DNA from: a virus
DNA: 55,909 nt
Direction: 5' to 3' (one strand)
Virus record (IMG/VR): IMGVR_UViG_3300036781_000607
Location: 1-55,909 of that record
Positions 2,470-21,548 of this stretch are shown piece after piece (position 1 is the stretch's first letter; every line of letters starts with the position of its first letter). The position numbers were made by a program, and so were the translations under genes. The notes below the pieces were generated by a model. The model worked only from the letters and a program-made list of their open reading frames with translations, was not told the DNA's origin and ran no database searches.

Positions 2470-2949
2470 TTATGTAACCCTTTCATCAACTATAACAGGA
2501 TAATCTGCACTTGCTGGCATTGCATCAATGATTAATGCAAAATCTTCAAATGAAGCCTTAAGTTCTCCAGAGCCGTTAAATACCATATTCCATGTGCTCG
2601 CCCCCTTGCCAGGGCCTGTAGCGCTTCCGGAAGCCAGTACAGCATTTCCGCTTAACGACATTTGCGTAGTTGCAGACGGCCTTGTACCCCAAATTAAAAA
2701 TACGGGTAAACCTGAAAAGAACGAGTTCATCAAAGTTTTAAAATCAGCGCCTACGGCTTCAGCTAATAATTGGCCATCAATGCTGATCGTCCATGATCTT
2801 AAACCCGCGATAAATTCAGCCCATCTTGCACTGTCAACAGCAGAAGCAGGCAGCATATTGGCCTGAAAGTTGATAGATGACTGTACCTCACAGCTTATAA
2901 ATATGCCGTTCGCTTGTAGCCCTAATAACCTTCCTGATATTCCTGCCAT
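2470..2949 (-). CDS. Major tail (tube) protein, paralog 2
   Basis: 159 aa, with an N-terminal motif shared with ORF 1665-2129. The antisense ORF 2528-2866 is judged spurious. Confidence 0.5.
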   Translation of the reverse strand: MAGISGRLLGLQANGIFISCEVQSSINFQANMLPASAVDSARWAEFIAGLRSWTISIDGQLLAEAVGADFKTLMNSFFSGLPVFLIWGTRPSATTQMSLSGNAVLASGSATGPGKGASTWNMVFNGSGELKASFEDFALIIDAMPASADYPVIVDERVT

Positions 2950-3365
2950 TATATTACCTCAGATAACCAGTGTTCATAGATCAAAACCCGTCTCTCAATA
3001 GTAAGCGTTTTATCGGTCATATCCAAATCAATACTATCGATCAGGTAAGTTGATTTCAAATAAAAATTATTAACCAAAATGCCCGCTTCAACTGCAGTGA
3101 TACAAAGTTGTTCCATGTCATCCACAATAGAAGTAGCCGTATAGCCACGGGTGTTTACGCTAATAATGTGTAATGTAACACGGCAGTTCCACTCAAAATC
3201 CTCTTTACTGCGTTCAGTTGTGGTTTTTGACTGGGACTCAACCAGCACATATTGCGCAGGTACCGGGTTAACATCAACCGGAATATCTTTATTAAATACA
3301 GTCAATCCCACATTCTGTAAAGCAGTAAGATAACCTTCACGTAAAAATTTGTCAGGGTTCTTCAT
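2949..3365 (-). CDS. Neck / tail-completion protein (by position)
   Basis: 138-aa ORF in the head-tail joining block, with overlapping start and stop codons on both sides. Confidence 0.4.
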   Translation of the reverse strand: MKNPDKFLREGYLTALQNVGLTVFNKDIPVDVNPVPAQYVLVESQSKTTTERSKEDFEWNCRVTLHIISVNTRGYTATSIVDDMEQLCITAVEAGILVNNFYLKSTYLIDSIDLDMTDKTLTIERRVLIYEHWLSEVI

Positions 3366-4726: not shown

Positions 4727-4745
4727 AAATCAAAACTAATAAAAA

Positions 4746-4799: not shown

Positions 4800-6098
4800 T
4801 TAAGTCGTACGGGTAAAGTCAATCTTTTTGAATGACTCAGGATAGAAAGGAGTCATCGCGATACGGGCTTCAACCAGGAAGGTAACCAAGTTCTTGAAGA
4901 AGTTTTGGTCAGCTTCAGTAGAAGTACGCAGGGTAATACCCTTTTTCTGCCATAAAGCAACACCGCGATTATAATTACCTGCCAAACCTTCCAGTGCATT
5001 AAATACTGTATGGAAGTAGATCGGAATACCACCGATGGCCAACTGGCCGGCAGTAGTAGCCTGGATAGGATAATCATATTCCTGTACATCACCTTCTGAC
5101 TTATTAATTAAAGCACTCAGATAAGCTTCCGGTGAAATCCAGATCGCGTCGCCTGGACGCAGGTTGCGGCGGGTATTCGTAAGTGCCAAAGCCATTTTAT
5201 CCCAAACATTTGAATTAGGGCTTACGTCCTCTATACCGGCATAGCTGATAGCACTTGCTACTTCACTGAATAGACCTGGTAATTCGCCTGATGCTGAAAC
5301 GCCTTTAAATACCTGGCGAGTTTCTTCGTCTTTGTATGCCCAGGGTAATTCCTGTGCCAGCCATTCAGGTGCCCCTACGATATCATCCAAAAATTCTTCC
5401 TGCACGCTTACCCAACCTGCAATCTTAATTACATTCGCTGTCTTTGGAACAGGTGTGTAGTCAAATTGTGGTTTGGTTGCACCTGCAGCAACAGAAGCGA
5501 TCTTACCGTCTTTTTTAACAAACTGAACGTAGTTGATCGCATTATTAGCAGTAGGGTATACTGGTATAATATCGCGGGCCTGTACCTGTTCGTGCGGAAT
5601 ACTGATTGGCATTAACCATTGCTGCGCAGTAGTACCAGCAGGTACACCAATTACAGCGGGAGCTTTTTCAGCTAAAAGACCAGCGCCTTCTAACTCCACA
5701 TTGAAAGATTTTTTGGTTTTAAATTCCTGCAATTGCTTCATAGCTGCACCATCTTTTTCAGCAAAAGCTTTACTGATCTCAGCTTTCAACCCTGCCATTT
5801 CAGCATTTTTCTGTTGTGCAGAAATACGCTCCATTTTAGCTTCGGCAGCTTCACGCTTTTTATCAGTTTCATCGATCTTAACTGTCAATGCAGCAATTTC
5901 AACTTTCTGAGCTTCAATAGTTGTGGTTAATTCTGTTTTCACGGCTTCCACAGCGACACCTGCGGCAGTTTCAGCAGCTACTTTAGCGGCATCGGCAGTT
6001 TCCTTCATTTCATGGCTACGCTTTTCATCGGCGTATTTTTCCTTCTGATAATCAGTAAGAGCCTCGAATTGTGCTTTGGTTAAATATTCAAATTTCAT
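4800..6098 (-). CDS. Major capsid protein (HK97 fold) with an N-terminal coiled-coil, delta-like domain
   Basis: 432 aa. The first ~130 aa are Ala/Glu/Lys-rich and coiled-coil-like. It follows the protease gene and no separate scaffold gene is present. Confidence 0.8.
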   Translation of the reverse strand: MKFEYLTKAQFEALTDYQKEKYADEKRSHEMKETADAAKVAAETAAGVAVEAVKTELTTTIEAQKVEIAALTVKIDETDKKREAAEAKMERISAQQKNAEMAGLKAEISKAFAEKDGAAMKQLQEFKTKKSFNVELEGAGLLAEKAPAVIGVPAGTTAQQWLMPISIPHEQVQARDIIPVYPTANNAINYVQFVKKDGKIASVAAGATKPQFDYTPVPKTANVIKIAGWVSVQEEFLDDIVGAPEWLAQELPWAYKDEETRQVFKGVSASGELPGLFSEVASAISYAGIEDVSPNSNVWDKMALALTNTRRNLRPGDAIWISPEAYLSALINKSEGDVQEYDYPIQATTAGQLAIGGIPIYFHTVFNALEGLAGNYNRGVALWQKKGITLRTSTEADQNFFKNLVTFLVEARIAMTPFYPESFKKIDFTRTT

Positions 6099-6110
6099 TT
6101 CGGGTTGTTT

Positions 6111-6935
6111 TTAAAGTTGATAAAAATAATCTGATTTAACCTCTGTGCTGCTGTCTGCGGGCGGTTCGGTTTCGTGTTTTTGACCTGCTTCTGCGGGGTC
6201 ATTATAATAAATTGGAGTCGCGCGGTTTGAGCCAGCTAATACAGCGCTTCCCTCTTTTACAATTTTTGCCTGTTTCTGAGCCCAAAAATACCCTTCTGTC
6301 TCATCTTCTTTATTGGCCATTAAAGGGAAATACTTCATGTAATTCATGTATTCCGCTTCCATGCCCTTACCAGTACTGTTAACACAAAGATCCATGTCAA
6401 CATACTGCATACGTATAGACCCCTGTAATGGCTTACCAGCTTTAATAATCTTAAATGCTTTTTTATTTGATAACTCAGTTACCATCGAAGCAAATATTAA
6501 AGCTTGTGTTTTACCGACATAATTTTGTCCTAAATCCGACCAGTCTAAACTCCTTAAAAGTATTTCTACTTCATCAGGATAACTTATAATCGAGTTCATG
6601 TCAAGTTTATGCTCCGTGGTATAGTAAGTTTTACCTTGCTGGTCTTTAATTGATAAATCCCAGATACCGTCCAGGTGCATATCTTTATGACTGTCCAAAA
6701 AATTTGTAGTATTTATAACTGGATATATAATATCCCCAAATTTTAATTCAGCCGGAGCCTGTAATGATTTTGATGTCTCATCTTTACTTTGTCGAAGCGC
6801 AAAACCTACAGGATCACTTTCCTTTATAGCTGCTTTTTTTAAACCAATAATTCGTGTTTTATTTTGCACAAGAGCAATAAACATCTCTTGTTGAGTAGAA
6901 AACTCCTTATTAAGTTCAGGACAAAATATTTTCAC
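6111..6935 (-). CDS. Prohead maturation protease (HK97 / U35-S78-like)
   Basis: Motifs FLDSHKDMHLDG, GSIRMQY and EGSAVLAGSNRAT resemble the family pattern. It lies immediately upstream of the capsid gene and has a GTG start. Confidence 0.6.
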   Translation of the reverse strand: MKIFCPELNKEFSTQQEMFIALVQNKTRIIGLKKAAIKESDPVGFALRQSKDETSKSLQAPAELKFGDIIYPVINTTNFLDSHKDMHLDGIWDLSIKDQQGKTYYTTEHKLDMNSIISYPDEVEILLRSLDWSDLGQNYVGKTQALIFASMVTELSNKKAFKIIKAGKPLQGSIRMQYVDMDLCVNSTGKGMEAEYMNYMKYFPLMANKEDETEGYFWAQKQAKIVKEGSAVLAGSNRATPIYYNDPAEAGQKHETEPPADSSTEVKSDYFYQL

Positions 6936-7114: not shown

Positions 7115-7145
7115 TTGCAATATTGAAATATGTAATTTATATTTG
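7115..7145 (+). promoter_or_regulatory. Bacteroidota-type promoter (-33 TTG, -7 TATATTTG), conserved copy 1
   Basis: TTG at 7115-7117, a 20-nt spacer, then TATATTTG at 7138-7145. The ~33-bp block is similar to 25333-25366 and 37519-37552. Confidence 0.5.
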
Positions 7146-7150
7146 CACTC

Positions 7151-7342
7151 ATGACATTACAAGAAGCTATTAAAGAAATTACCTCAAAACCTAAATGGTA
7201 TGCAGGTAAACTTAACCAATCAACAGCCAGTAGTACTGTTAGAAATATCATAGCCGGTACAGCAAAGCCAAAAACTGTTCGTGAATTTATGGCTTTATTT
7301 GGATTTGAAGTTGAGAAAGAATTAATATGGCGAAAGAAATGA
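7151..7342 (+). CDS. Small hypothetical protein, first gene of the plus-strand cassette
   Basis: 63-aa ORF 6 nt downstream of the promoter-like element. Confidence 0.45.
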   Translation: MTLQEAIKEITSKPKWYAGKLNQSTASSTVRNIIAGTAKPKTVREFMALFGFEVEKELIWRKK

Positions 7343-7590
7343 GAAATAACATGCAAAGGTCTATATCGCATGGTTTAGGCATAGAAACTCCTGTTAAAGT
7401 TTATAATGTTGATGAAAAACAATTACTTTTTATTTGTAAAAATTTGAGTGAATGTGCTTTGAAAGTAGGTATAAACATGAGCACGCTAGTACGTGCTATT
7501 TCAAATAAATCTGTAAATAAAGCCAATAAATTAAATTTACGTTTAGCATTTAGATTATGCCCATTAGAAAATTCACAATCACAGGCATAG
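7327..7590 (+). CDS. NUMOD1/IENR1-like helix-turn-helix protein (stand-alone homing-endonuclease DNA-binding module)
   Basis: PVKVYNVDEKQLLFICKNLSECALKVGINMSTLVRAISNKS resembles the NUMOD1 pattern. Confidence 0.45.
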   Translation: MAKEMRNNMQRSISHGLGIETPVKVYNVDEKQLLFICKNLSECALKVGINMSTLVRAISNKSVNKANKLNLRLAFRLCPLENSQSQA

Positions 7591-7789
7591 CCGTTAAGGT
7601 CGAGTTCAAAAATGAATTTAACCCGCATACATTTGAACAGATCAATAAGCGGTATGATACAACTGGACATTGTTAGTAATGGTGACTTCTCCGATTTTGA
7701 CGCTGAGAAGCTACAATCATTAATTATCAACTATTTTAAAGGCAATCCAAAATTGATGTTGCCAGATATAATAAGGAGTTCAAATTAAT

Positions 7790-8104
7790 ATGGAAAACAA
7801 AATTCTTATGATTTCATTAACTCCTGATGAGTTAAAAAATTTAGTTAAAGAAGCGATCAGAGAATATAATTGTTCTTTATCGGGTGGCGGAAATGAAAAA
7901 ACTTTTGCAGATACTATTATAGATTGGGATCTATCTCACAAATGTATTAAAACTCTAAAAGATGCTTTTCCTAACTGTACATTAGACCAATTTTTATCTA
8001 AAAATACTGAATATACTCTACTTAGAGTAAGAGGTTTCGGTAAAAAATCCTTAGAAGAACTTGTTTCTTATCTACGTATGAAAAATTTATCTCTTAGAAA
8101 ATGA
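7790..8104 (+). CDS. RNA polymerase alpha C-terminal-domain-like (HhH) protein
   Basis: C-terminus TLLRVRGFGKKSLEELVSYLRMKNLSL resembles the RpoA CTD motif (...NLGKKSL.EI...L...GLSL). Confidence 0.5.
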   Translation: MENKILMISLTPDELKNLVKEAIREYNCSLSGGGNEKTFADTIIDWDLSHKCIKTLKDAFPNCTLDQFLSKNTEYTLLRVRGFGKKSLEELVSYLRMKNLSLRK

Positions 8105-8757
8105 ACGTTGGAATTGCAATATCAACTCATAATCGCCGGGAAATCGCCGAGCGCTCTATAGAACAGTGGAAAAAATTTCTGCCTGTTGGTGCCAAACTGG
8201 TTATCGTGGATGATGCTTCAGCAATTCCTTATCCTGGCGCTGACTATGTTTTCAGTGAACGTGCAGGTATCTCAGCAGTTAAGAACAAATGTATAGAACT
8301 GCTTGAAGATTGTAGTGATATTTTTCTGGCAGACGATGACATTTACGCGATAGATGCGAACTGGGCCACCTGGTATACGCACAGTAACCTGCAGCATGCC
8401 TGTTATATATTTGAACGTAAATTATTGTGGACTGAGCCTGATTACAAAGCGTATGAATTGCCTCGCGGTTGCCTGCTTTACTTTACAAAACACTGCATCG
8501 AAATAGCAGGGGGGTTTGATACGAATCTAAAAAATATGTATGAACATGTAAATTTATCTCAACGTATTTTCAATATGAAATTAACTCCATCAGCATACAT
8601 TGATATCCCGCATTCAAAAGGATTATTCTATTCGCATGATGAGCAAAATACGGCTCAGTCATGCTTTGATCCTTATGAACGTACTAAAGCGATCTGGGAG
8701 AACAAAAAATACTGGGAAGAAACCAAATTAAGTAATCAGTTTATACCTTATAAATGA
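8101..8757 (+). CDS. Glycosyltransferase family 2-like (GT-A)
   Basis: GIAISTHNRREIAERSIEQW...KLVIVDDAS, plus a second DDD motif. Confidence 0.7.
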   Translation: MNVGIAISTHNRREIAERSIEQWKKFLPVGAKLVIVDDASAIPYPGADYVFSERAGISAVKNKCIELLEDCSDIFLADDDIYAIDANWATWYTHSNLQHACYIFERKLLWTEPDYKAYELPRGCLLYFTKHCIEIAGGFDTNLKNMYEHVNLSQRIFNMKLTPSAYIDIPHSKGLFYSHDEQNTAQSCFDPYERTKAIWENKKYWEETKLSNQFIPYK

Positions 8758-9395
8758 TAAGTATAATTCATCCAACGCGTAACCGTTTTAAACAAGCGCA
8801 GGAAACTACTAATAAGTGGCTATCAAGAGCTGACGGAAACATAGAATATATTTTAAGTGTAGATTTAGATGACTTAAACTATAAAAACTCATCTATCGCT
8901 TTTATATCTGATAATAAATCTGCTATTGAGGCTATAAATAATGCTGCTAAGAAAGCTTCCGGTAATATATTCATCATAATTTCTGATGATACGGATTGTC
9001 CTGAACACTGGGACACATTACTTTTACAGGCGCTTGAAGGCAAATCGGATTTCTGCGCTAAGACTGATGATGGCCTGCAGCCGACTCTGATCACTATGCC
9101 GATCATGGATCGCATTTATTATGAGCGGTACGGTTATGTTTATCATCCTGATTTTTTACACATGCACTGTGATGAAGAACTTACTTGTGTTGCATTAATG
9201 ACCGGAAAATATATAAAATTACCTATTACGTTCTTACACAATCACTACACTACAGGTAAGACAGAAATCGATGATATCAATCGAAAAAATAATGCTACCT
9301 GGGCGCAAGGACAAAAAACTTTGAATGAGCATGCTAAAAATAACTTTGGAATCGAAAACCCAGTTATGCGCAGAGAGGATATTATATGGAAATAG
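8754..9395 (+). CDS. GT-A-like glycosyltransferase
   Basis: MISIIHPTRNRFKQAQETTNKW..., then IFIIISDDTD. Confidence 0.5.
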   Translation: MISIIHPTRNRFKQAQETTNKWLSRADGNIEYILSVDLDDLNYKNSSIAFISDNKSAIEAINNAAKKASGNIFIIISDDTDCPEHWDTLLLQALEGKSDFCAKTDDGLQPTLITMPIMDRIYYERYGYVYHPDFLHMHCDEELTCVALMTGKYIKLPITFLHNHYTTGKTEIDDINRKNNATWAQGQKTLNEHAKNNFGIENPVMRREDIIWK

Positions 9396-9868
9396 AAATC
9401 TGGAAATCTCTCCCTATAACTGATGATTATTTAGCATCTTCATTTGGCAGAATAAAGTCATTAAAATCAAATAAGGAAAAAATATTAAAGCCTCAAAAAG
9501 GTAAAAATGAACCTTATTATGATGTAACGTTAAGAATAAATGGTAAATCTACTATGAAAAGAATACACGTATTGGTTGCATTGGCGTTTCATCTAAATCC
9601 TGAACATAAAAAGACAGTTAATCACAAAGATGCTAATAAGTTAAATAACTACGCCTCTAATTTAGAATGGGCGACATATAAGGAAAATTTAAATCATATG
9701 ATGCTATTAAATTTAAATCCTCAATATGTAAAAGTTGTTCACTTAGAGACAGGTATTTTTTATGATAGGGCGTTAGATGCCGCAGTTGCTTATGGTATAG
9801 TTCCTTCCACTCTATACAATGCCTTAAACGGGTTTCGTAAAAATAAATTTAATATCATCGAAGTATGA
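9386..9868 (+). CDS. HNH homing endonuclease with NUMOD4-like N-terminus
   Basis: WKSLPITDDYLASSFGRIKSLK (NUMOD4-like) and VNHKDANKLNNYASNLEWATYKEN (HNH_3-like). Confidence 0.75.
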   Translation: MEIEIWKSLPITDDYLASSFGRIKSLKSNKEKILKPQKGKNEPYYDVTLRINGKSTMKRIHVLVALAFHLNPEHKKTVNHKDANKLNNYASNLEWATYKENLNHMMLLNLNPQYVKVVHLETGIFYDRALDAAVAYGIVPSTLYNALNGFRKNKFNIIEV

Positions 9869-10407
9869 TTCAACTATCAATACTTATAACGACAATGCCG
9901 ATACGGTCCAACAAGCTGGCCGATCTTCGCCAGGTTCTTGATCGCCAGTTAACGCCTGAAGTGGAAGTAGTGACGGATATTTCGATGAATTATAATATTG
10001 GTACCAAGCGCAATAAATTACTTTCTTTAGCCTCGGGAAAATATGTAGTTTTCATTGATGACGATGACCTTATCAGTTCAGACTACATTGAAAAAATACT
10101 GGAAGCTTGTAAATCTGATTGTGATTGTATTGGTATCAGTGGAGTAATCACGACAAATGGCAGGAATGAAATGCAGTGGCACATTTCCAAAGATTATATG
10201 GGTTGGTTTGAACGAAAAAATGTTTATTACCGTACGCCAAACCATATATCCCCTGTTAAACGTGAGCTGGCGCTATTGGCGGGGTTCCCAGAGATTAGTT
10301 TTGCAGAAGATCACGAATATTCGATGCGTTTGTTGCCCATGTTAAAAACTGAATTTAAGATACCAGGCATTTTATACTACTATAAATTTGAAAGTAAAAG
10401 AAGATGA
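9865..10407 (+). CDS. Glycosyltransferase family 2
   Basis: LSILITTMPIRSNKLADL... and KYVVFIDDDDLIS (DxD). Confidence 0.7.
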   Translation: MIQLSILITTMPIRSNKLADLRQVLDRQLTPEVEVVTDISMNYNIGTKRNKLLSLASGKYVVFIDDDDLISSDYIEKILEACKSDCDCIGISGVITTNGRNEMQWHISKDYMGWFERKNVYYRTPNHISPVKRELALLAGFPEISFAEDHEYSMRLLPMLKTEFKIPGILYYYKFESKRR

Positions 10408-11051
10408 ATAAAAAAGCTATAATATCATTTGCTAATGCTAATAACCGCTATGTTCAAAATATAGCGCGATTATCTGAAAGTTTACGTAATAACGCCCCGG
10501 AAATCGATTTTTTAGCCTGGATAGGAGAAAGTTCAGTTGGCGCTCCTTTACATTCTGAAAATCCATATGCCTTTAAAATATACTGTTGGGAACAAGCTTT
10601 AAAAGCAGGTTACCGGCAAATTTTATGGGTAGACGCTTCTTGTTTTGCTATTAAAAATGTTACACCTGTTTTTGATGTTTTAGATGAAGATGGATATATA
10701 GCTCAGCAGGCCGGTTATTTTTTAAATGAATGGTGCAATGATGAAACTTTAGAATATTTTGAAATATCAAGAAAAGAAACTGAATCGATCCCGATGATAG
10801 GAAACGCTGGTTTTTTAGGTCTTAATTTTGACCGAAAAGAAGCTAATCAGTTTTATGATAACTGGAAAAACTCAATGGAAGCTGGAATGTTTAAAGGTTC
10901 CTGGGAAAATCACCGTCATGATATGTCATGCAGTAGTGCTTTATGGTATCAGTGGGGGATGAAATATCAACCGGGGGATCAATGGCTACAGTATGCGGGT
11001 TTATTTGATGAAACAGCTAATGATACAATAATTTTTAAAGCGCAAGGATAA
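10404..11051 (+). CDS. Putative nucleotide-diphospho-sugar transferase-like protein
   Basis: 215 aa, AIISFANANNRY...ILWVDASCF pattern. The assignment is weak. Confidence 0.4.
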   Translation: MNKKAIISFANANNRYVQNIARLSESLRNNAPEIDFLAWIGESSVGAPLHSENPYAFKIYCWEQALKAGYRQILWVDASCFAIKNVTPVFDVLDEDGYIAQQAGYFLNEWCNDETLEYFEISRKETESIPMIGNAGFLGLNFDRKEANQFYDNWKNSMEAGMFKGSWENHRHDMSCSSALWYQWGMKYQPGDQWLQYAGLFDETANDTIIFKAQG

Positions 11052-11052
11052 A

Positions 11053-11625
11053 ATGGGAATAACTCAAAACTCTTTAGACCGTTTCAATCGGCACGTAGCA
11101 AACCTGGATACCATGCTGATCTTAGGTTGCCAAAATATGTACGGAGACACAAATTACGGTGAAATAGCCCGTGACTTTTTTACCCGTCACGGCTTCAAAG
11201 TAACTGATATTGATATTACTGGGTGCCAGGGGAGCCAGCAAATTGATCTCCGGGAACCAATTAATTTTGAAAATCAGTTCGGTATTATCATGCAGCACGG
11301 AACAGTGGAGCATATTGATGGTTCTTTATACCAGCCTTTTAAAAATATCCATGAAGCCTGTGCAGTTAAGGGTTTTATACTCCATGAAAACCCGATGACA
11401 AATAATTGGCCGAAACATGGTCAGCATTACTTTACTGAAAAATTCTATATTGAACTGGCCAAAGCCTGTAATTATGAATTGCTGGAAGTATGCTCAGAAG
11501 CAGCAATGAGTAATACAGTTGATGGATGGAATATCTGCGCAGTCCTTCGCAAAGTAGAAGATGCTGAATTTATCAGTGAAGAAGAATTTAACAAAATTTA
11601 TTCAAAACATATTAAATCAAAATAA
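11053..11625 (+). CDS. Possible SAM-dependent methyltransferase-like protein
   Basis: TMLILGCQNMYGD...TDIDITGCQG loosely resembles MTase motifs I and II. The call is weak. Confidence 0.35.
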   Translation: MGITQNSLDRFNRHVANLDTMLILGCQNMYGDTNYGEIARDFFTRHGFKVTDIDITGCQGSQQIDLREPINFENQFGIIMQHGTVEHIDGSLYQPFKNIHEACAVKGFILHENPMTNNWPKHGQHYFTEKFYIELAKACNYELLEVCSEAAMSNTVDGWNICAVLRKVEDAEFISEEEFNKIYSKHIKSK

Positions 11626-11627
11626 TT

Positions 11628-11909
11628 ATGTTGTTCAAAGTAGGAAATGAAATCATAGATACCGAAACTACACCGGTAGCCTTAATCTTTAAAACTAAAG
11701 AGGAAGGTAAAGTTGTAGGTGAAATTATTGCCAATATTAAAAATGGGGATAGCCAATATTCAGTTGAAAATAATGGTAACTGGTGGATGATGTTTCCTGC
11801 CGGAGTATCAAAAGAAGAAATTGATAAATGGTCAATTCTTACACCTGAACAAAAAGAATTACTCGAAAAAGCACCTTGTGTTTCAACTATAATAACCAAT
11901 GAGCTATGA
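11628..11909 (+). CDS. Hypothetical protein
   Basis: 93-aa ORF whose stop overlaps the next ATG (ATGA). Confidence 0.5.
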   Translation: MLFKVGNEIIDTETTPVALIFKTKEEGKVVGEIIANIKNGDSQYSVENNGNWWMMFPAGVSKEEIDKWSILTPEQKELLEKAPCVSTIITNEL

Positions 11910-12187
11910 AACCAATAGATTTCCCCGGTCGTAATATTATTTTTGCTGAAGATCAGCCGGAATACCAACCATTGCCTGCCATTTTAATGCCTGACCCCGA
12001 AGCGGAAGTAATTTCCTGTTAGGAATTGTCTGATGAAGAAATAGCCACTATCGTTAAAAACAGGTGTCTGTTTATTTCACAACTTTGCTTCAGGCATGAA
12101 AATGAAAAAGGCGAGATGGTGAACAATGCTTTACAACCAATTTTACCGATGACCCAATTAGGTGATAATATAATGCTACTACCATGA
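11906..12187 (+). pseudogene. 93-codon gene interrupted by a single in-frame TAG at 12020-12022 (nonsense mutation or read-through)
   Basis: ATG 11906 overlaps the upstream stop (ATGA) and its TGA at 12185-12187 overlaps the next ATG (ATGA). The only interruption is TAG after ...EVISC, followed by ELSDEEIATIV... Confidence 0.55.
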
Positions 12188-12474
12188 GTTTTACAAAATT
12201 AATTCCTGTATTCGTACAAGAAATGCCAGAAATTAAAGAACAAGGTATTTTGTATATTTCGTATAAATACGAAACTGCAATTCATTTATGTGCTTGCGGT
12301 TGTGGGGAGTTAACTATTACTCCATTTTCTCAAGGATGGAAAATAATTAACACTCCTATACAAGTTGATGGACAGAATCAAAATATTATTACTATACGCC
12401 CCTCAATAGGTAATCAAAAATTACCTTGTAAATCACACTATTTTATAACAAATAATCAAATTGATTGGAGATGA
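12184..12474 (+). CDS. Small Cys-rich protein (CxCGCGE ... PSI ... C.SHYF..N motifs), DUF6527-like from memory
   Basis: HLCACGCGELTITP...IRPSIGNQKLPCKSHYFITNNQIDW. Confidence 0.5.
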   Translation: MSFTKLIPVFVQEMPEIKEQGILYISYKYETAIHLCACGCGELTITPFSQGWKIINTPIQVDGQNQNIITIRPSIGNQKLPCKSHYFITNNQIDWR

Positions 12475-13091
12475 ATTCAGTAGCCCAAAACAAAGAGGAC
12501 CTGTTCATACAGGAATACTTCGGTGATTTTAAAGGTACTTTACTCGATATTGGATCGAATGACGGAATTACATTTTCAAATTCACGTTTACTTATCGAAA
12601 ATGGATTTAAAGCGCACCTTGTTGAACCTTCCTCGGTTTTCTATGACCTGAAACGCTTGTATCTCGGCAATCAGAATGTACATTGTTACAATGTGGCTAT
12701 TGGAGAACAGCAGGGAATTGTCGATTTTTACGAATCAGGTGCTCATGTTCCGAATGGTACTGATAAAGCCCTGGTGTCTACACTGGATTTCAACGAAACA
12801 CAGCGGTGGGCGAATGTACAATTCAACAAGATCAAAGTCAATGTGGTACCGTTCAATTTCCTGTGGGAAATGACCGACTTTGCAAAATTCGACTTTATAT
12901 CGATTGACGCCGAAGGGCATGATCTCACTATTTTAAGGCAAATTGACCTGGATGCTGTAAGGTGTAAATGCCTGATCATTGAACATAATGGTAGTGAGGA
13001 TTTAAAAACTGATTTCTGCAGGTATTGCGTTGATCAATTCGGTATGAAATTAGCACTTGTGAATGCTGAAAATATTATCTTTATACGTTAA
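12465..13091 (+). CDS. FkbM-family methyltransferase
   Basis: LLDIGSNDGITFSNS...HLVEPSS...VAIGEQQGIVDFYES...ISIDAEGHDLTIL matches the FkbM pattern. Confidence 0.7.
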   Translation: MEMNSVAQNKEDLFIQEYFGDFKGTLLDIGSNDGITFSNSRLLIENGFKAHLVEPSSVFYDLKRLYLGNQNVHCYNVAIGEQQGIVDFYESGAHVPNGTDKALVSTLDFNETQRWANVQFNKIKVNVVPFNFLWEMTDFAKFDFISIDAEGHDLTILRQIDLDAVRCKCLIIEHNGSEDLKTDFCRYCVDQFGMKLALVNAENIIFIR

Positions 13092-13104
13092 AACCCATAA
13101 AACA

Positions 13105-14172
13105 ATGAACGAGACTCTATATGTGATCACACCGATCTTTAACCCCCGGCGCTTTACCAGCCGTATCAAACTTTACAACCAATTCGCAAAATATATGCAG
13201 GATTGTGGTGTCAAACTGATCACAGTAGAAGTCGCCTTTGCTGACCGGCCCTTCGAGGTTACCAATCATTATAACCCTTATCATTTGCAACTCAGGAGCC
13301 CCGTAGAACTATGGCATAAAGAACGTGCTATCAACCTGGGAATTGAGCATCTTAAAAAATTACATCCGGAAGTTAAGAAAGTCGCCTGGATAGACGCGGA
13401 TGTTCATTTCAGCAATCCTAACTGGGTAACAGATACATTATATGCTCTTGATCATTATCATGTTGTACAGATGTTCTCACAAGCTACTAACCTGGGGCCG
13501 AAGCATGAAATACTCGATAAATTTGAAGGTGCTTTTGCTCACTGGCGTAATCGTAAACCTCCTGTTCATGTTTGTGATTATCCTTTATCTGAACTTGGTG
13601 GCGGCCATCCGGGTTTAGCCTGGGCCGCAACTATTGATATACTGGAAAAACTTGGCGGTTTATTAGATCGATGTGTTCATGGTAGTGGTGACAGCCACAT
13701 GGCAAACGCGTTACGTGGTGATGTGCATACTTATTATTTAAAACGTGAAACATCTGAAGCCTTTAAAAAGATGCTGGATGACTGGCAGGCGCTGTGCGAT
13801 AAATTCGTAAAACGAAACGTTGGGCATATCGAAGGTGTGTGTAATCATTACTGGCATGGTGCTTACCAAAAAAGAGGTTATAATACCCGGTGGGACGTTA
13901 TATGCCATCATGAGTATGATCCTTTTGTAGATATCGAGTATGATGACAACGGTTTATACAAATTCACAGGTAATAAGCCTGATTTTGAGCAAGACCTGCG
14001 TTTATCAATGATCGCACGTAATGATGATGATAATGTCATTACGTATGACCCTGCAAAAATTGTAAAAGAGGGGGATAAGATCGGTAATAAAGTACTACGC
14101 CGCGTTTCTGCCGGCTTCGCAGAGAAAAATCCGGACTTAGGTTTAAAAGAAGGTGATTTATGGCCGATGTAA
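13105..14172 (+). CDS. Putative GT-A-like glycosyltransferase (355 aa from the ATG at 13105)
   Basis: LYVITPIFNPRRFTSRIKLY...VAWIDADVHF. The ATG at 13105 avoids overlap with the FkbM gene. Confidence 0.5.
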   Translation: MNETLYVITPIFNPRRFTSRIKLYNQFAKYMQDCGVKLITVEVAFADRPFEVTNHYNPYHLQLRSPVELWHKERAINLGIEHLKKLHPEVKKVAWIDADVHFSNPNWVTDTLYALDHYHVVQMFSQATNLGPKHEILDKFEGAFAHWRNRKPPVHVCDYPLSELGGGHPGLAWAATIDILEKLGGLLDRCVHGSGDSHMANALRGDVHTYYLKRETSEAFKKMLDDWQALCDKFVKRNVGHIEGVCNHYWHGAYQKRGYNTRWDVICHHEYDPFVDIEYDDNGLYKFTGNKPDFEQDLRLSMIARNDDDNVITYDPAKIVKEGDKIGNKVLRRVSAGFAEKNPDLGLKEGDLWPM

Positions 14173-14717
14173 AAATTCATTATATACAACCATATAGAAC
14201 CGATAAAAATATTGGTAAAGCAATCAATGAAACTATCCAAAATCTACGGTACGAACCTGATGATTTTATCATATTAACCGATCACGATACTTTATGGCTG
14301 CTGCCCGACTCTAAGGCCCAGGTGGAACGAATCCTTATGGGCACTGATTATGATATCCTCGGGTGCATGACCAACCGTATACGTTCTCCTGAGCAGCTTA
14401 TAAACGGCAGGTTCATTGAGAACGACAGTATCCGTGATCATATCGTGCTGGCTGAGAAATGCCGGGAGAATGCAGGAGATTACGTGAAAGAGGCCCACAA
14501 CGCGGTAGCGGCTTTTTGCATGTGTTTCCGGGTATCAGTGTGGGTGCGTGTCAGTGGTTTCGTGGAGAATGTTTTAACGTTCGATTCCGAGTTCTGCCGC
14601 GAGGCACGGGTGACCTGCCGGGCTAAAGTCGGTATTATGTGTGGCGTGTATGTGTGGCACAGCTACCGGCTTGATAAGAAAAATCCAAAATCATATATTA
14701 AACACTTAGAAAAATAA
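14160..14717 (+). CDS. Putative glycosyltransferase (GT2-like)
   Basis: DDFIILTDHDTLWLLPD (DxD-like) and AFCMCFRVSVW resemble GT2. Confidence 0.5.
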   Translation: MADVKIHYIQPYRTDKNIGKAINETIQNLRYEPDDFIILTDHDTLWLLPDSKAQVERILMGTDYDILGCMTNRIRSPEQLINGRFIENDSIRDHIVLAEKCRENAGDYVKEAHNAVAAFCMCFRVSVWVRVSGFVENVLTFDSEFCREARVTCRAKVGIMCGVYVWHSYRLDKKNPKSYIKHLEK

Positions 14718-14722
14718 AAATT

Positions 14723-14950
14723 ATGGAAAAGGACAGATTAAATGCGATCATGCAAATTTTTGCTGAACTTGATCACGGAGAACAAGTAGATTTATTTTTG
14801 AATCTTAAAGATGCACTTTTACAAAACCGTGCTGCGCGTCGGGAAGAACATGAAAAAATACTGCAGGTACAACAAGAAAATATCAAAACGATCTTTGCCG
14901 GTAATGATATGATTATCAGTAATAATAGCGCAGCAGTAAAAACCGGTTAA
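14723..14950 (+). CDS. Hypothetical protein (last gene of the cassette)
   Basis: 75-aa ORF followed by a terminator hairpin. Confidence 0.45.
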   Translation: MEKDRLNAIMQIFAELDHGEQVDLFLNLKDALLQNRAARREEHEKILQVQQENIKTIFAGNDMIISNNSAAVKTG

Positions 14951-14960
14951 TTATTTAACC

Positions 14961-14989
14961 GCCGGTGAGTCCTTTGCCGGCTATTTTTT
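14961..14989 (+). terminator. Intrinsic terminator closing the glycosyltransferase cassette
   Basis: GCCGG-tgagtcctttg-CCGGC followed by TATTTTTT. Confidence 0.6.
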
Positions 14990-15088
14990 GTATATTTATA
15001 GTTCGATGTTCAGGATCGTAACTTTTAAAACATTATAGCTATTGGTGAGTAGGGCCTGAACCCCGAAAGCCAGTGGCTTTTTTATTTT

Positions 15089-15619
15089 ATGGAACTTACA
15101 CAAGAATTAGTTAGAGAGTTATTTAATTATCATGAGGACGGTTATTTGATCTGGAAAATAAAGCCCAGACAAAATGTAAATATTGGTGATATAGCCGGTC
15201 ATTTAACTATTGATAGAGGTGAAAAACGTCATTCAACTATGATTTATGGAAAAGGTTACCGTATATCAAGATTAATTTTCTTTTACCATACGGGTAAATG
15301 GCCTCAAACTATAGACCACATAAACCGCGTTACAACTGATAATAGAATACAAAATTTACGTGCTGCTACTCGGGCTGAAAATAGTCGAAACAGAAATCCA
15401 TCTAAAAATTCTTCCTCAAAATATCTCGGGGTAGGTTGGCATAAAGCTACTCAAAAATGGTGCGCTAAAATAAAAGCAGAAGGTAAGGATAAACATTTAG
15501 GAGTTTTTACATCTGAAATTACTGCTGCTTTAATTTATAATAAGTCAGCGGTAAAATATTTTGGTGAATTTGCAAACCTAAATATTATAATTCCTTCAAA
15601 TGCTCAAAATAACTTTTAG
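15089..15619 (+). CDS. HNH-AP2 homing endonuclease (paralog of 41054-41569)
   Basis: IDHINRVTTDNRIQNLRAATRAEN (HNH) and SKYLGVGWHKATQKWCAKI...LGVF...AALIYNKSAVKYFGEFANLN (AP2 domain). Confidence 0.8.
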   Translation: MELTQELVRELFNYHEDGYLIWKIKPRQNVNIGDIAGHLTIDRGEKRHSTMIYGKGYRISRLIFFYHTGKWPQTIDHINRVTTDNRIQNLRAATRAENSRNRNPSKNSSSKYLGVGWHKATQKWCAKIKAEGKDKHLGVFTSEITAALIYNKSAVKYFGEFANLNIIIPSNAQNNF

Positions 15620-17036
15620 GTTTTTCGGTTTGATTTTCACCTGCTACGGCCGCCGTTACGTGAGCTGCCCCCTGTTGTACAGTACCATCCATAATGCTCT
15701 GCATCGGAGTTTTAGTAATAGGTACCCATATCAAGTCAGCGCCTGGCTCTGTACTGCGACCATAACCGATTACTTCACGTTTTTCATTTAAAGAAAGGAA
15801 ATCGGCTTTTACCAGGTAATCAACGGTGCCTTTCACATCGTCCTGAAGTTCCGGCAAGCCCATAAAGTCTTTCTCAACTATGTAGGTGGCGTGGCTCGTG
15901 TTATACGGAGTACAGATAAAGGCTGTCATCGCTTTACTGAACTTACGGCAGTAAGGTGCGATTGCATTATAGGCAAGCTGTCGGTTCGCTACCGGCAGAT
16001 TGTTGTATGTCGCAGTATCTTGACTTCTGAACTGCAATGGTACGTGAAATCCCCGGTAAATATCATCTGCTTTCGCATCTGAGGCTTCCAGAGCTTTTAA
16101 ATCAGCTATCGGCAAACCTATTGCTGTCCATTTCAAGGGTATGGCCACCGGTACGATCCGGTCAAGGCGATCATTTGATGCATAAGCTGTTTTAAGAGAT
16201 TCCCCGGTCTGCTCCATTTGTGGTTCTCCCCAGTTATCTTCTTTATTCTCGGGATTAAGTAAACCTATTGAGCCCCCGTTTTTAACTTGTTTATCTACTT
16301 CACGGTCAACATTTTTTAATATGTCAATGGAGTACAGATAAGCTTTAAGTACTGGTAGCCCGTAACCCTGTGATCCTGCCGGATCATAACGGGGATTGAG
16401 TGTTTTTATATGTTTAATTTGATTGGCGGGAAACGGTCTGTTCTGAAGATAGTTAGTCATTTGATATTCAACAACCGGATCCATGAAATTCTGTCCTGCT
16501 TTAATAGTCATTTCGCTTGGTATGCACCATAGTTCGGACCATTTGCCTGCTTTCCGGTCAGCATCATTACCTGCATTTCCGTACAGATAAGTATTGCCGC
16601 GAAGCAGTAGTAAAGCACTTGCCAGTTCCCAGAGTGAGTCCCCATCTGTTTCCGGATTTGGGTTTTCCAGTAATTTTTCTATCGCAGGCATTGATACTTC
16701 TTCCAGTGCATTAACTTTTGCAATCAGCATTTTAGCTATATCGCCACCTTCACAAGCCTGTAAATATTTCTTATAATCTTTTTGGCTTTTAACGCGGTAC
16801 ACGATCCAGGGACAAGCAACGAATTTTTTAACGATCAGGTCAACACATTCATAAACTGCGCCTACCTGTTCAAAAGCTTTTTCGGAGTAGTTATAACCAT
16901 TCGGGTTGATCGTGACCTGAACATTATTGATCAGTTGGTTGAGGTTTTGCTGGAACAGGTTTTGGGTAATATGGGATACCTGTTGGTTGACCCTCTTATC
17001 AATTGTGCCTTTGAGCAGGTAATTCAATATTCCCAT
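15585..17036 (-). CDS. Portal protein (HK97 family-like)
   Basis: 483 aa, in the minus-strand packaging and head gene set. Confidence 0.8.
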   Translation of the reverse strand: MGILNYLLKGTIDKRVNQQVSHITQNLFQQNLNQLINNVQVTINPNGYNYSEKAFEQVGAVYECVDLIVKKFVACPWIVYRVKSQKDYKKYLQACEGGDIAKMLIAKVNALEEVSMPAIEKLLENPNPETDGDSLWELASALLLLRGNTYLYGNAGNDADRKAGKWSELWCIPSEMTIKAGQNFMDPVVEYQMTNYLQNRPFPANQIKHIKTLNPRYDPAGSQGYGLPVLKAYLYSIDILKNVDREVDKQVKNGGSIGLLNPENKEDNWGEPQMEQTGESLKTAYASNDRLDRIVPVAIPLKWTAIGLPIADLKALEASDAKADDIYRGFHVPLQFRSQDTATYNNLPVANRQLAYNAIAPYCRKFSKAMTAFICTPYNTSHATYIVEKDFMGLPELQDDVKGTVDYLVKADFLSLNEKREVIGYGRSTEPGADLIWVPITKTPMQSIMDGTVQQGAAHVTAAVAGENQTEKPKSYFEHLKEL

Positions 17037-17093
17037 GAAACAAATATAAAAATTTTGTTTGCATATAAGTGTGGAAAATTTTTCGTGAAATTT

Positions 17094-17498: not shown

Positions 17499-17511
17499 AA
17501 TTTAAATAAAA

Positions 17512-17539
17512 ACCGCCGAAATCCTTATGTTCCGGCGGT
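17512..17539 (-). terminator. Hairpin A with flanking T/A runs, about 10 nt upstream of the ATG at 17498
   Basis: ACCGCCG, a 14-nt loop, then CGGCGGT. On the minus strand it is followed by TTTTATTT. Confidence 0.55.
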
Positions 17540-17571
17540 CGTTTTCAACATGAAGAACTCAGTCCCTACTA

Positions 17572-17593
17572 AGGCTATAAATATAATAAAAAT
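17572..17593. repeat. 22-bp AT-rich box AGGCTATAAATATAATAAAAAT, copy 1
   Basis: Identical to 17679-17700. Confidence 0.85.
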
Positions 17594-17607
17594 TTTTAAC
17601 AAGAAAA

Positions 17608-17650
17608 ACCGCCGGAAAAGTGGAGTTCGATCAAAACATACTTCGGCGGT
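17608..17650 (-). terminator. Hairpin B, same 7-bp stem sequence as hairpin A
   Basis: ACCGCCG ... CGGCGGT. On the minus strand it is followed by TTTTTCTTG. Confidence 0.55.
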
Positions 17651-17678
17651 TTTCTTTCATAAGTGGTGCCTCATGATT

Positions 17679-17700
17679 AGGCTATAAATATAATAAAAAT
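17679..17700. repeat. 22-bp AT-rich box, copy 2
   Basis: Identical to 17572-17593. Confidence 0.85.
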
Positions 17701-17867
17701 ATTTTTCATAATAGCCGGTTTTTGCTCAAATATTTTTCTACATGGGGTCTGCGGCAAACGAAATTACAAAGTTGTCCTTTTGTTTTTAATGGATCCTTTG
17801 AGATATTACTTTATTGATTATCAACAATTTAAATAATAAAATGTGGATAACTTTTATTAAATAATAC

Positions 17868-17897
17868 TTGACAAATACGAAACTTTTAGTATCTTTA
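17868..17897 (+). promoter_or_regulatory. Diverged Bacteroidota-type promoter for the 17920-19407 block
   Basis: TTG at 17868-17870, a 19-nt spacer, then TATCTTTA at 17890-17897. Confidence 0.35.
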
Positions 17898-17919
17898 TAT
17901 CGTTAAACAATTAAAGATC

Positions 17920-18102
17920 ATGACACTATTAGAACAACGGAAACAAGAGGCTGAACAGATGAAACCTCAATTACAAAATAAGATTAATGACCAGGTTATT
18001 GATCTTTTGCAAATGCGTAATAATGCCATCAAATTAAATGACTGGATGGGGCGTATATTAATAGAAAATAAACTTGACTCTTTAAACATTCAATATAAAT
18101 AA
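17920..18102 (+). CDS. Hypothetical protein
   Basis: 60-aa ORF. Confidence 0.45.
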   Translation: MTLLEQRKQEAEQMKPQLQNKINDQVIDLLQMRNNAIKLNDWMGRILIENKLDSLNIQYK

Positions 18103-18103
18103 C

Positions 18104-18223
18104 ATGAAAACTTTAAACACCTTATTAGCTGCCTTCATAGTGCTGGCGGTTATCGCATTCGTTGCAATGGCTTTTCCTGCCTTGCTTCATAACATAATAA
18201 GAGACTTAATAGCTAAAAACTAA
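18104..18223 (+). CDS. Small single-pass membrane peptide (39 aa)
   Basis: MKTLNTLLAAFIVLAVIAFVAMAFPALL... Below the ORF-track cutoff. Confidence 0.35.
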   Translation: MKTLNTLLAAFIVLAVIAFVAMAFPALLHNIIRDLIAKN

Positions 18224-18228
18224 ACAAC

Positions 18229-18450
18229 ATGAAAACAACATTCTCAATTACAAGTTTCTTTGATCCTTTCGGTGATGGAAAATCAACAAGGAAAGTGTTT
18301 CAAAGAAAATTTTATCACTCTGAATTTAGTGATAAAGATCAAATTCAAAACTTTTTTGATACAGTAATTAACAATAAACCAACTTCTTACTATGGTGAGA
18401 AAGTTATAAAGTTCAAATCTTATACTAAAACTAAACCCTTTATAATATGA
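18229..18450 (+). CDS. Hypothetical protein
   Basis: 73-aa ORF. Confidence 0.45.
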   Translation: MKTTFSITSFFDPFGDGKSTRKVFQRKFYHSEFSDKDQIQNFFDTVINNKPTSYYGEKVIKFKSYTKTKPFII

Positions 18451-18617
18451 AATTATACACACCTGATCAAATCTTTGATATCATAGGATCCGTACATTCA
18501 AGTACGGATCTAATCGAAATTGAGCACTATATACTAAGCAATCAAACAGCCTATAAGCCTTATTTGATTGATATCTGGCAATTATGCATTAACGACTTAT
18601 ATTCAATATTAAAATGA
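18447..18617 (+). CDS. Small hypothetical protein (56 aa)
   Basis: ATGA overlaps at both ends with the neighbouring ORFs. Confidence 0.4.
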   Translation: MKLYTPDQIFDIIGSVHSSTDLIEIEHYILSNQTAYKPYLIDIWQLCINDLYSILK

Positions 18618-18847
18618 GCAACATTGTAAACCCTGTAAAGCCTTATTCGATTAAATCTAATCAATATGGTGCGTTTCCTTGCAAAACTTACTACTATATA
18701 GTAGATGCTACCGGCGCAACCTTTCATCATAAGGACCAAAAATGGCGTAAAAAGGAAACTATTGAAATGACAAACTATTACTATCACCTGGTTACCGCCG
18801 CCGAATCACATTTAAAATATCTTAACAAAAATGGAAAAATCAGGTAA
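18614..18847 (+). CDS. Hypothetical protein
   Basis: 77-aa ORF. Confidence 0.45.
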   Translation: MSNIVNPVKPYSIKSNQYGAFPCKTYYYIVDATGATFHHKDQKWRKKETIEMTNYYYHLVTAAESHLKYLNKNGKIR

Positions 18848-19040
18848 ACATCCTAATGAAGCATTTATAACTATCAACTTGCAGTCGCCACTTTTAAATA
18901 AGTCGGCCATTGCAAAGAAATTAGGTTTAACGGCTATGAACTTTCACGATAAGTTAAACGGCCGTGGAAAGGCTAAACGGTTTACCGCCGCCGAATTGGT
19001 GGAAATTGAAACAGTAATTAAAAACGATCTTAATCTTTAA
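18831..19040 (+). CDS. Small HTH-like protein
   Basis: LNKSAIAKKLGLTAMNFHDKLNG resembles a helix-turn-helix. Confidence 0.45.
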   Translation: MEKSGKHPNEAFITINLQSPLLNKSAIAKKLGLTAMNFHDKLNGRGKAKRFTAAELVEIETVIKNDLNL

Positions 19041-19044
19041 AAAC

Positions 19045-19407
19045 ATGAAAACTCTAATCACCTCAGAACAAGCGTTTATCAACCAATTACAAAGAGCAGT
19101 TGAAAACGGTTTTGAAATAGACCGCGACTTAACTATAAATGAAATTCAAATTGAAGCGCAGGACTTTTTAATATATAATTTGCCGGTAGATAAGTCCGAA
19201 TATTGCGAAGTCTTACAACATGGAACAAGTCAACATGTAGATTATTGCGACGGTTTAGGCACCGTTTACACTTGTGACGGTGAAATAATTGGCTGGAATA
19301 CTTACAGAGATGCCACACCAAATGAAAAATTTGTTCATACAACTATTGTAAACGTAAAAGGCGAAATAGTTCAGTTATACGAAAATCTATGTTTATCTTT
19401 AAGTTAA
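19045..19407 (+). CDS. Hypothetical protein
   Basis: 120-aa ORF. Confidence 0.45.
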   Translation: MKTLITSEQAFINQLQRAVENGFEIDRDLTINEIQIEAQDFLIYNLPVDKSEYCEVLQHGTSQHVDYCDGLGTVYTCDGEIIGWNTYRDATPNEKFVHTTIVNVKGEIVQLYENLCLSLS

Positions 19408-21450: not shown

Positions 21451-21548
21451 AAAAATTATTTTTATTTCAAATATCGCTTTTAATTATCAAAATAAAAACT
21501 ATATTTGATCTCCCACTCTTTAACATCCGTACTATAATTAGTACAAAA

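Follow-up and report, generated by a model that had tools for sequence, protein, structure and literature searches.

The window analysed here is the whole of IMG/VR virus record IMGVR_UViG_3300036781_000607, a stretch of 55,909 nucleotides, and our subject is a cassette of glycosyltransferase (GT) and methyltransferase genes at 7115-14989 that runs antisense to the phage head genes around it. The map of open reading frames (ORFs) agrees with the arrangement given in a preliminary description of this DNA: an uninterrupted string of plus-strand genes, 7151-14950, is flanked by minus-strand head genes, with the portal gene on one side and the genes at 4800-6935 on the other (Table 1, where cassette genes can be found by the start positions that we use as their names). 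The G+C content is 0.30-0.37 over 7-13 kb, compared with 0.41-0.45 in the flanking head genes. All six of the GTs and GT-like proteins encoded in the string are GT-A-fold enzymes, and they are accompanied by an FkbM-family methyltransferase and a probable second methyltransferase. The 127-bp identical termini of the record (1-127 and 55783-55909) indicate a circular assembly and hence a complete genome of ~55,782 bp; the tape-measure ORF spans the contig junction. PHROGs/Pfam scans of the ORFs detected neither an integrase nor nucleotide-sugar genes anywhere in this complete genome.

How secure are the enzyme assignments? For 8101, 9865 and, with less assurance, 8754, the preliminary description had claimed GT2/GT-A enzymes, and matches to PHROGs glycosyltransferase families or to PF00535 agree with it; 14160, one of three further proteins described there as GT-like, likewise falls into a PHROGs glycosyltransferase family. 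The other two, 10404 and 13105 (the latter with its start corrected here from 13063), match no family in Pfam, PHROGs or NCBIfam; their database homologues, 312 and 181, respectively, are all annotated "hypothetical". Structure prediction, which had been suggested for assigning GT families, recovered GT-A folds for both. AlphaFold with homologue alignments gave models with pLDDT values of 95.1 (10404) and 90.9 (13105), and Foldseek matched both to GT-A structures with a probability of 1.0, grouping the former (TM ~0.6) with the LARGE1 xylosyltransferase domain, glycogenin, blood-group GTA/GTB, UGGT and LgtC, and the latter with B4GalT1, a chlorovirus hyaluronan synthase, WrtF, GtrB and a domain of PBCV-1 A064R. 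Two large unannotated families are in this way given a predicted GT-A fold. A lack of catalytic DxD residues had been named as a possible objection; the motif is kept in five of the six GTs, at least 95% conserved at D78/D80 (8101), D78/D79 (8754), D65/D67/D68 (9865), D41/D43 (14160) and D97/D99 (13105), and in 10404 an invariant D77-x-S79 variant takes its place. The family profile of 9865 matches TarS, GalT1, PglI, TarP and GmaR; that of 8101 gave weak matches to B4GalT7 alone when compared with the PDB (E 0.27), and single-sequence searches of the PDB with 8101, 10404, 13105 and 14160 returned nothing significant. NCBIfam has no equivalog for the cassette proteins and so offers no hint of the donor sugars.

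The FkbM methyltransferase scores well above the curated cut-offs of both PF05050 (57.6 bits, cut-off 22.7; E 2e-15) and TIGR01444 (50.3 bits, cut-off 37.7), which secures its earlier identification, with the difference that translation probably starts at the ATG at 12471 rather than at 12465. The product of 11053, which had been put forward as a possible second methyltransferase, has no direct family match itself, and we uphold it as a probable class I enzyme on the evidence of its relatives: 20 of its 37 homologues match Methyltransf_23, and its family profile matches juvenile-hormone acid methyltransferase (E 0.0016). Priming, flippase, polymerase and ligase genes are all missing from the cassette, and none of its proteins has a membrane segment, the highest 19-residue Kyte-Doolittle window being 1.47 against a threshold of 1.5. 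Hydropathy and family scans are therefore in accord with the earlier statement that membrane, export, nucleotide-sugar and DNA-base-modifying genes are absent.

The cassette appears to be transcribed as a unit of its own. TATATTTG at 7138-7145 fits the Bacteroidota -7 box TAnnTTTG and lies exactly 13 nt ahead of the ATG; it ends 5 nt before that codon, so the mRNA would be nearly leaderless. The same box stands at -12/-13 of five unit-leading genes, where ~0.1 would be expected, and is retained at the cassette head in five of seven relatives. A host-type Bacteroidota promoter is therefore credible, and the distribution of the box implies that early and structural units would use a single promoter type and produce near-leaderless transcripts. 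Of the "early-type promoter" in the preliminary description the promoter stands, supported by a conserved box, but "early-type" does not, because the portal and adaptor genes have the same box ahead of them. Scanning the region for sigma-70 sites was uninformative (36 found, 35.6 expected) and the -7 box test was used instead; the sigma-70 reading of TTGCAA-17-TATATT (7115-7143) scored 9/12, not above chance. At the other end of the unit, a scan recovered the terminator that had been described, a hairpin followed by a T-run. The promoter boxes, together with genes that lack Shine-Dalgarno sequences, the binning of homologous contigs with metagenome-assembled genomes (MAGs) of Bacteroidetes, Flavobacteriales and Sphingobacterium, and the similarity of the 6111-6935 product to gp053, a "structural protein" from Flavobacterium phage snusmum9-1 (E 3e-53), suggest a Bacteroidota host.

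Is the cassette a newcomer among the head genes, as the word "inserted" in the preliminary description might imply? Five IMG/VR contigs (L001-L005) have portals 71-90% identical to that of this phage, and all five carry the cassette in the same position and orientation, with GT identities (52-88%) similar to those of the structural proteins. The core consists of 8101, 8754, 9865, 10404, the FkbM gene, 14160 and the gene for the 58-aa protein at 7612; the variable genes are 11053, 13105 and those for the DUF6527 protein, the RNA polymerase alpha C-terminal-domain (RpoA-CTD)-like protein and the endonucleases. Between the FkbM gene and 14160 is a slot that is occupied by the GT-A gene 13105 here and in L002, and by a GT-B gene (Glyco_trans_1_4) in L001, L003, L004 and L005, and in L001, L003 and L005 the 9865-like and 10404-like domains are fused. 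The block 8754-9865-10404-(11053)-FkbM-(8101)-(14160) was found again in over 25 other contigs of viral or MAG origin. It lies antisense between portal and scaffold/capsid genes in L022, L024 and L047 (capsid 30-35% identical), with L047 having a reduced version; in L041-L043, whose portal is 25% identical, it comes directly after the portal gene and is co-oriented with it. Phages whose portals share 25% identity have GTs that are 50-60% identical, which argues that the block moves horizontally. The unit does therefore sit among head genes as had been claimed, but not through recent insertion here; as judged from these comparisons it is both a stable, conserved part of the phage clade and a horizontally mobile module. 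No close relative without the cassette was found, and all phages with a portal identity of 41% or more carry it, so the comparison with an "empty site" rests on distant cultured phages, Flavobacterium phage snusmum9-1 and Mesorhizobium phage P1, in which the portal, gp053/protease and capsid genes are contiguous. The phage has no close cultured relative that we could find: the cassette had no megablast match among 50,697 phage records, and neither 10404 nor this FkbM protein has a homologue among the 50,697 cultured-phage records.

Which virion residue might such enzymes modify? The HK97-type major capsid protein ends in Thr-Thr (last two codons 4803-4808). Among 43 capsid homologues, 36-92% identical, the C-terminal residue is Thr or Ser in 42 and the terminal pair is Thr-Thr in 35, and the three to five residues ahead of the C-terminal end vary freely. 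Thr-Thr ends the capsid protein in 6/6 loci with the GT block beside the portal, including L041, whose capsid protein is too distant to be detected by tblastn with that of this phage at E 1e-3, and in 2/40 related capsid proteins whose upstream sequence is free of the cassette for at least 4 kb. The nominal Fisher p of 3e-6 is inflated by shared ancestry, and the test covers lineages other than the L032-L034 type, in which capsid genes are not identifiable in the 10-kb flanks. The capsid C-terminal Thr-Thr is, from these alignments, the most specific candidate for an acceptor site, a lead rather than proof.

We propose, with a probability of roughly 0.5, that the cassette is a self-contained cytoplasmic module that glycosylates the phage's own virion proteins during assembly. 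All of the enzymes are soluble and priming, flippase, polymerase and ligase functions are not encoded, which argues for an acceptor that can be reached from the cytoplasm; DNA, host lipid-linked glycans and proteins are conceivable. The cassette would be transcribed from its own Bacteroidota-type promoter, antisense to the head genes. One GT-A enzyme would place a first sugar, taken from a host nucleotide-sugar, on Ser/Thr of a structural protein, with the capsid Thr-Thr as candidate site, and the remaining GTs would lengthen the chain. O-methylation of sugars by the FkbM and class I methyltransferases would cap or diversify the glycan. The block would be exchanged among phage lineages and, since one slot alternates between GT-A and GT-B enzymes, related phages would bear different glycans; glycan diversification would be expected to produce just such variation of GT content among close relatives. 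What we infer from the genes is the acceptor, which step follows which, the sugars and any benefit (shielding, stability or adhesion). The preliminary description had likened the set to virus-encoded capsid glycosylation, and the gene content speaks for that likeness, as do the homology to gp108 of mycobacteriophages and the slot in phage Corndog (both considered below) and the capsid Thr; for the function itself, the odds are those given above. A fuller version must be put more tentatively: that environmental siphophages of Bacteroidota use this mobile set of six GTs and two methyltransferases to attach a methylated oligosaccharide to the capsid C-terminal Thr, with swappable slots varying the glycan. 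Such environmental phages never meet antibodies, and a glycan coat would therefore serve another purpose. It might protect against host defences by which virion proteins are tagged or degraded (the unit here also encodes a deconjugating DUF6527 protease), or it might alter adhesion or stability in the environment.

Several observations weigh against virion glycosylation. The association of Thr-Thr with the GT block is largely at the level of clades and not phylogenetically independent; neither the capsid nor the tail-tube protein has a Ser/Thr-rich extension of the mycobacteriophage kind, only the terminal Thr-Thr being found, and the C-termini of the tail-tube proteins are not conserved. We found no similarity to Che8 gp110 or Corndog gp38, which are reported, in the literature consulted, as GTs essential for capsid glycosylation. 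In L032-L034 the block lies between replication genes and apparent packaging genes, outside the head module, which weakens the positional argument. A member of the 13105 family occurs alone after tail-fibre-like genes and beside the integrase in a Bacteroidota prophage (L006, 10001-10945), which is a typical position for lysogenic conversion, and another occurs alone in a Mu-like element, upstream of terminase and portal (L008, 10001-11011). GTs that remain 50-60% identical in phages with divergent portals are more easily explained by an acceptor that the hosts share, and an acceptor of host origin would account for the mobility of the block among unrelated phages no less well than a virion protein would. 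Soluble GTs can, moreover, act on lipid-linked intermediates at the inner membrane face, so the lack of membrane segments is compatible with host glycans as acceptors.

Could the cassette then remodel host glycans? On the cytoplasmic side of the membrane, the GTs and methyltransferases would alter undecaprenyl-linked intermediates of the O-antigen, the capsule or the general Bacteroidota O-glycan, and the host flippase and ligase would export a methyl-capped glycan that masks receptors, blocking superinfection or keeping progeny off debris. Many GTs of O-antigen and capsule pathways are peripheral and lack membrane segments, and the loci concerned typically include FkbM methyltransferases. Beyond this general resemblance, the spread of the block among phages with unrelated head genes, its position in L032-L034 and the lone 13105-family gene beside the L006 integrase would all suit this explanation, as would the polysaccharide receptor suggested by a beta-helix depolymerase-like protein encoded elsewhere in the genome. 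Against it stand the missing priming, flippase and ligase genes and membrane segments, a number of GTs that far exceeds known phage seroconversion modules, the recurrence of the block, in either orientation, at the portal-capsid junction of several lineages, and the homology of two of the GTs to genes of a mycobacteriophage virion-glycosylation locus. The complete genome has no integrase, so lysogenic conversion does not apply, and with Gtr-type membrane proteins also missing, classical Gtr-type seroconversion is unlikely. We consider host-glycan remodelling as a whole unlikely, though it is a serious competitor to glycosylation of the virion.

Two further explanations are considerably less probable. 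The cassette might build a methylated oligosaccharide on a modified DNA base and so block restriction or CRISPR, in the manner of T4 glucosyl-hmC, arabinosyl-5hoC or 5mYOX-dependent glycans. To our knowledge, sugar O-methyltransferases have no precedent in DNA glycosylation. It is known that GT-A enzymes of phages can decorate 5hmC with mono- to trisaccharides and that their clusters can adjoin structural genes (bioRxiv 10.1101/2023.12.21.572611), and the present genome encodes three DNA methyltransferases and many homing endonucleases. Characterized phage DNA glycosylation, however, starts from a hydroxylated pyrimidine, made with a thymidylate-synthase homologue, be it a dCMP/dUMP hydroxymethylase or a 5hoC synthase, or by 5mYOX after a C5-methyltransferase, and no thymidylate-synthase homologue, 5mYOX/TET or C5-methyltransferase was detected by PHROGs and/or Pfam among the ORFs of at least 100 aa in this complete 55.8-kb genome. 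Since these enzymes are missing and the methyltransferases present are of the N6_N4_Mtase and D12/Dam classes, DNA is an improbable acceptor, and the cassette is also distant from the replication module. Counter-defence or host takeover has hardly better prospects: the enzymes would glycosylate a soluble host protein or small molecule, and the cassette would be an accessory island that gathers anti-defence genes. The DUF6527 (BubE-type) protease and the RpoA-CTD-like protein encoded in the unit point this way, and the GT-B of the variable slot in relatives weakly resembles "GT4 in conflict systems", with scores of 19-20 bits that fall short of the cut-off, 26. None of the relatives, however, has the DUF6527 or the RpoA-CTD gene, which makes these two add-ons rather than core, and a multi-step glycan pathway with two methyltransferases would be excessive for the inactivation of one target.

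Table 1. Features of the cassette, its transcription signals and the neighbouring virion genes
Feature	Coordinates	Strand	Details
GT-A glycosyltransferase, 218 aa	8101-8757	+	phrog_1579/2456, E 3e-49; D78-D79-D80 conserved
GT2 glycosyltransferase, 213 aa	8754-9395	+	PF00535, 24.8 bits; phrog_14945; S77-D78-D79 conserved
GT2 glycosyltransferase, 180 aa	9865-10407	+	PF00535, E 4e-10; D65/D67/D68 conserved
GT-A glycosyltransferase, retaining (GT8/GT6/GT24-like) type, 215 aa	10404-11051	+	invariant D77-x-S79, H172-D173
GT-A glycosyltransferase, unannotated family, 355 aa	13105-14172	+	invariant D97-A-D99
GT-A glycosyltransferase, 185 aa	14160-14717	+	phrog_14179, E 5e-41; D41-H-D43 conserved
FkbM-family methyltransferase	12471-13091	+	PF05050, TIGR01444
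Class I SAM-dependent methyltransferase (probable), 190 aa	11053-11625	+	
Putative cassette promoter	7115-7145	+	TTGCAA (-33-like) element and TATATTTG (-7 box, TAnnTTTG)
TAnnTTTG boxes	4727-4738, 7138-7145, 17041-17048, 25358-25365, 37492-37499		
Units headed by TAnnTTTG besides the cassette	starts at 4726, 17036, 25370, 37486	-, -, +, -	
Intrinsic-terminator-like hairpin	14961-14989	+	9 bp, 5 G-C pairs, then T-run
Small protein, 63 aa	7151-7342	+	phrog_26076; homologues in L001, L002, L020, L024
Small protein, 87 aa	7327-7590	+	no family match
Small protein, 58 aa	7612-7788	+	kept upstream of first GT in 5/5 close relatives
RpoA-CTD-like protein, 104 aa	7790-8104	+	PF03118, 26.0 bits (cut-off 23.8)
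HNH homing endonuclease (NUMOD4 + HNH_3), between two GT genes	9386-9868	+	
Protein, 93 aa	11628-11909	+	
TAG-interrupted ORF	11906-12187	+	in-frame TAG at 12020-12022
Stand-alone DUF6527 (BubE-type Ser-His protease, Cys4 zinc site)	12184-12474	+	PF20137, E 5e-17
Small protein, 75 aa	14723-14950	+	kept beside portal in L003-L005
Second HNH endonuclease	15089-15619	+	own hairpin 15065-15081 upstream; 3' end overlaps portal 3' end
Portal protein	15585-17036	-	phrog_12
Head protein, scaffold/protease position between portal and capsid gene	6111-6935	-	homologue of Flavobacterium phage snusmum9-1 gp053
HK97-type major capsid protein	4800-6098	-	phrog_10; PF05065 in homologues; N-terminal coiled-coil (delta-like) region
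Tail tube and terminator proteins	2470-3365	-	
TerL/TerS	19404-21450	-	

The cassette region also holds genes that the preliminary description had overlooked: the HNH endonuclease genes 9386 and 15089, the DUF6527 and RpoA-CTD-like genes and the TAG-interrupted ORF. The HNH endonuclease encoded at 9386-9868 is 99.4% identical to its counterpart at the same intergenic site in L004 (15906-16388), against 76-88% for the flanking GTs, a difference that argues for recent homing, and it is a freeloader in the cassette. Three further HNH insertions lie between cassette genes in L003, and L002 has a GIY-YIG gene. In the DUF6527 protein C36, C38, C40, C82, S74 and H85 are spaced as published for BubE; the gene is absent from relatives. 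No E1, E2 or Ubl partner genes are present, so this is not a Bub operon, and the protein is a candidate counter-defence deconjugase directed at ubiquitin-like tagging of virion proteins. The RpoA-CTD-like protein, unique to this genome and without a homologue in the relatives, may modulate transcription. The 93-codon ORF at 11906-12187 is 86% identical to its L002 homologue, with the TAG at 12020-12022 in the place of TGG, a conserved Trp codon; this is probably a sequencing error, a nonsense mutation or a pseudogene of recent origin. Stop-codon recoding was considered and rejected at this position, where there is a single TGG-to-TAG difference, and also in the portal gene of L022, where a natural stop had fallen inside an over-extended alignment.

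The rest of the genome is that of a siphovirus, with a family A DNA polymerase, a primase-helicase and an endolysin in addition to the virion genes. The "protease" label previously given to the product of 6111-6935 found no confirmation; its homologue gp053 is annotated as a structural protein, and a single-sequence search of the PDB with the product gave nothing significant. ARAGORN identified no tRNA genes, although the intergenic region 37876-38957 looks tRNA-like. A diversity-generating retroelement occupies 26721-28715, with its reverse transcriptase at 27753-28715 (phrog_1423, E 2e-105) and template repeat at 27584-27660. One variable repeat, 27430-27506, forms the 3' end of gene 27158-27574 and is 86% identical to the template, with mismatches at template adenines, and a second, 27017-27093, forms the 3' end of gene 26721-27158, so the retroelement has two target genes. 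Adjoining the endolysin gene, 44057-45265 encodes a right-handed beta-helix protein (PF13229) that is probably a polysaccharide depolymerase or tail spike and suggests that the receptor is capsule or exopolysaccharide. The stretch 21451-21907, which separates the small terminase gene from the replication module, is dense with direct and inverted copies of GGTTTACAGG / CCTGTAAACC, an iteron-like array that probably represents an origin or a regulator binding region. In 17499-17919 a motif of ~20 nt, GGCTATAAATATAATAAAAAT, is present twice, each time after a strong G+C-rich hairpin, and is followed by a near-consensus TTGACA-N17 promoter ahead of small plus-strand genes at 17920-19407, which make up a second antisense unit, interrupting the packaging/head module.

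What would glycosylation of the virion mean if it is confirmed? The original mycobacteriophage glycosylation study by Freeman et al. in 2023 is said to have judged the trait rare in other phages. In the literature that cites it, phage virion glycosylation is presented as demonstrated only in mycobacteriophages (PMC12363180, PMC12619734). The cassette would be a new and much larger variant of that system, in another host phylum and in a setting free of antibodies; capsid glycan coats would become a general phage trait instead of an actinobacteriophage peculiarity, and antibody shielding would no longer suffice alone as their rationale. It would also provide a concrete, testable site, the capsid C-terminal Thr-Thr. 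If the virion is not the target, this would still be an unusually large, mobile and soluble glycosylation module, and in either case a compact set of soluble enzymes that could serve the glyco-engineering of phage particles. Our search of the literature found no description of such a cassette or of virion glycosylation in Bacteroidota phages.

Among known systems, the phage DNA-glycosylation clusters (T4 alpha/beta-GT, the 5mYOX/ThyS-dependent clusters and arabinosyl-5hoC) share with the cassette soluble GTs that are often GT-A, sometimes several in number and sometimes near structural genes, but they have precursor-base enzymes that this complete genome lacks. Serotype-conversion modules of the GtrABC type also encode GT2 enzymes on phage genomes; the cassette phage, unlike these, has no GtrA/GtrC-type membrane proteins or integrase and far more enzymes. 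For the glycosylation of its capsid, chlorovirus PBCV-1 combines soluble cytoplasmic GT-A enzymes with sugar methyltransferase activity, independently of host export pathways, and the GT domain of its A064R protein (PDB 2p6w) is matched by the 13105 model with an E value of 2e-5, a resemblance at the level of the fold alone, with 10-11% identity. PBCV-1 differs from the cassette phage in its eukaryotic host, double jelly-roll capsid, N-linked glycans and dispersed genes.

The mycobacteriophages offer homologues as well as analogy. The virions of Che8, Corndog and Myrna carry O-glycans added by phage GTs, as summarized in PMC12363180 and PMC12619734. GT8101 is 40% identical (E 3e-44) to the N-terminal domain of gp108 from the cluster F mycobacteriophage Spartacus, and its closest homologues in cultured phages are the gp108 GTs of ~600 cluster F mycobacteriophages; GT9865 is 35% identical (E 5e-26) to the N-terminal domain of Che8 gp108. 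Nothing in the cassette matches Che8 gp109/gp110 or Corndog gp35-38 at E <1. The present system differs from the Che8 and Corndog loci in its host, Bacteroidota instead of Actinomycetota, in having six GTs and two methyltransferases where those loci have two or three GTs, in running antisense to the head genes in this clade, and in being a predicted rather than a demonstrated glycosylation system. Here as in those loci, phage genes encode soluble GT-A enzymes, together with a methyltransferase in Corndog; GT content differs among related mycobacteriophages as it does among the relatives of this phage; an HNH endonuclease gene is found nearby in Che8; and in Corndog the methyltransferase gp35 and the GTs gp36-38 lie between the portal gp34 and the capsid gp41, the same portal-to-capsid slot that the cassette occupies.

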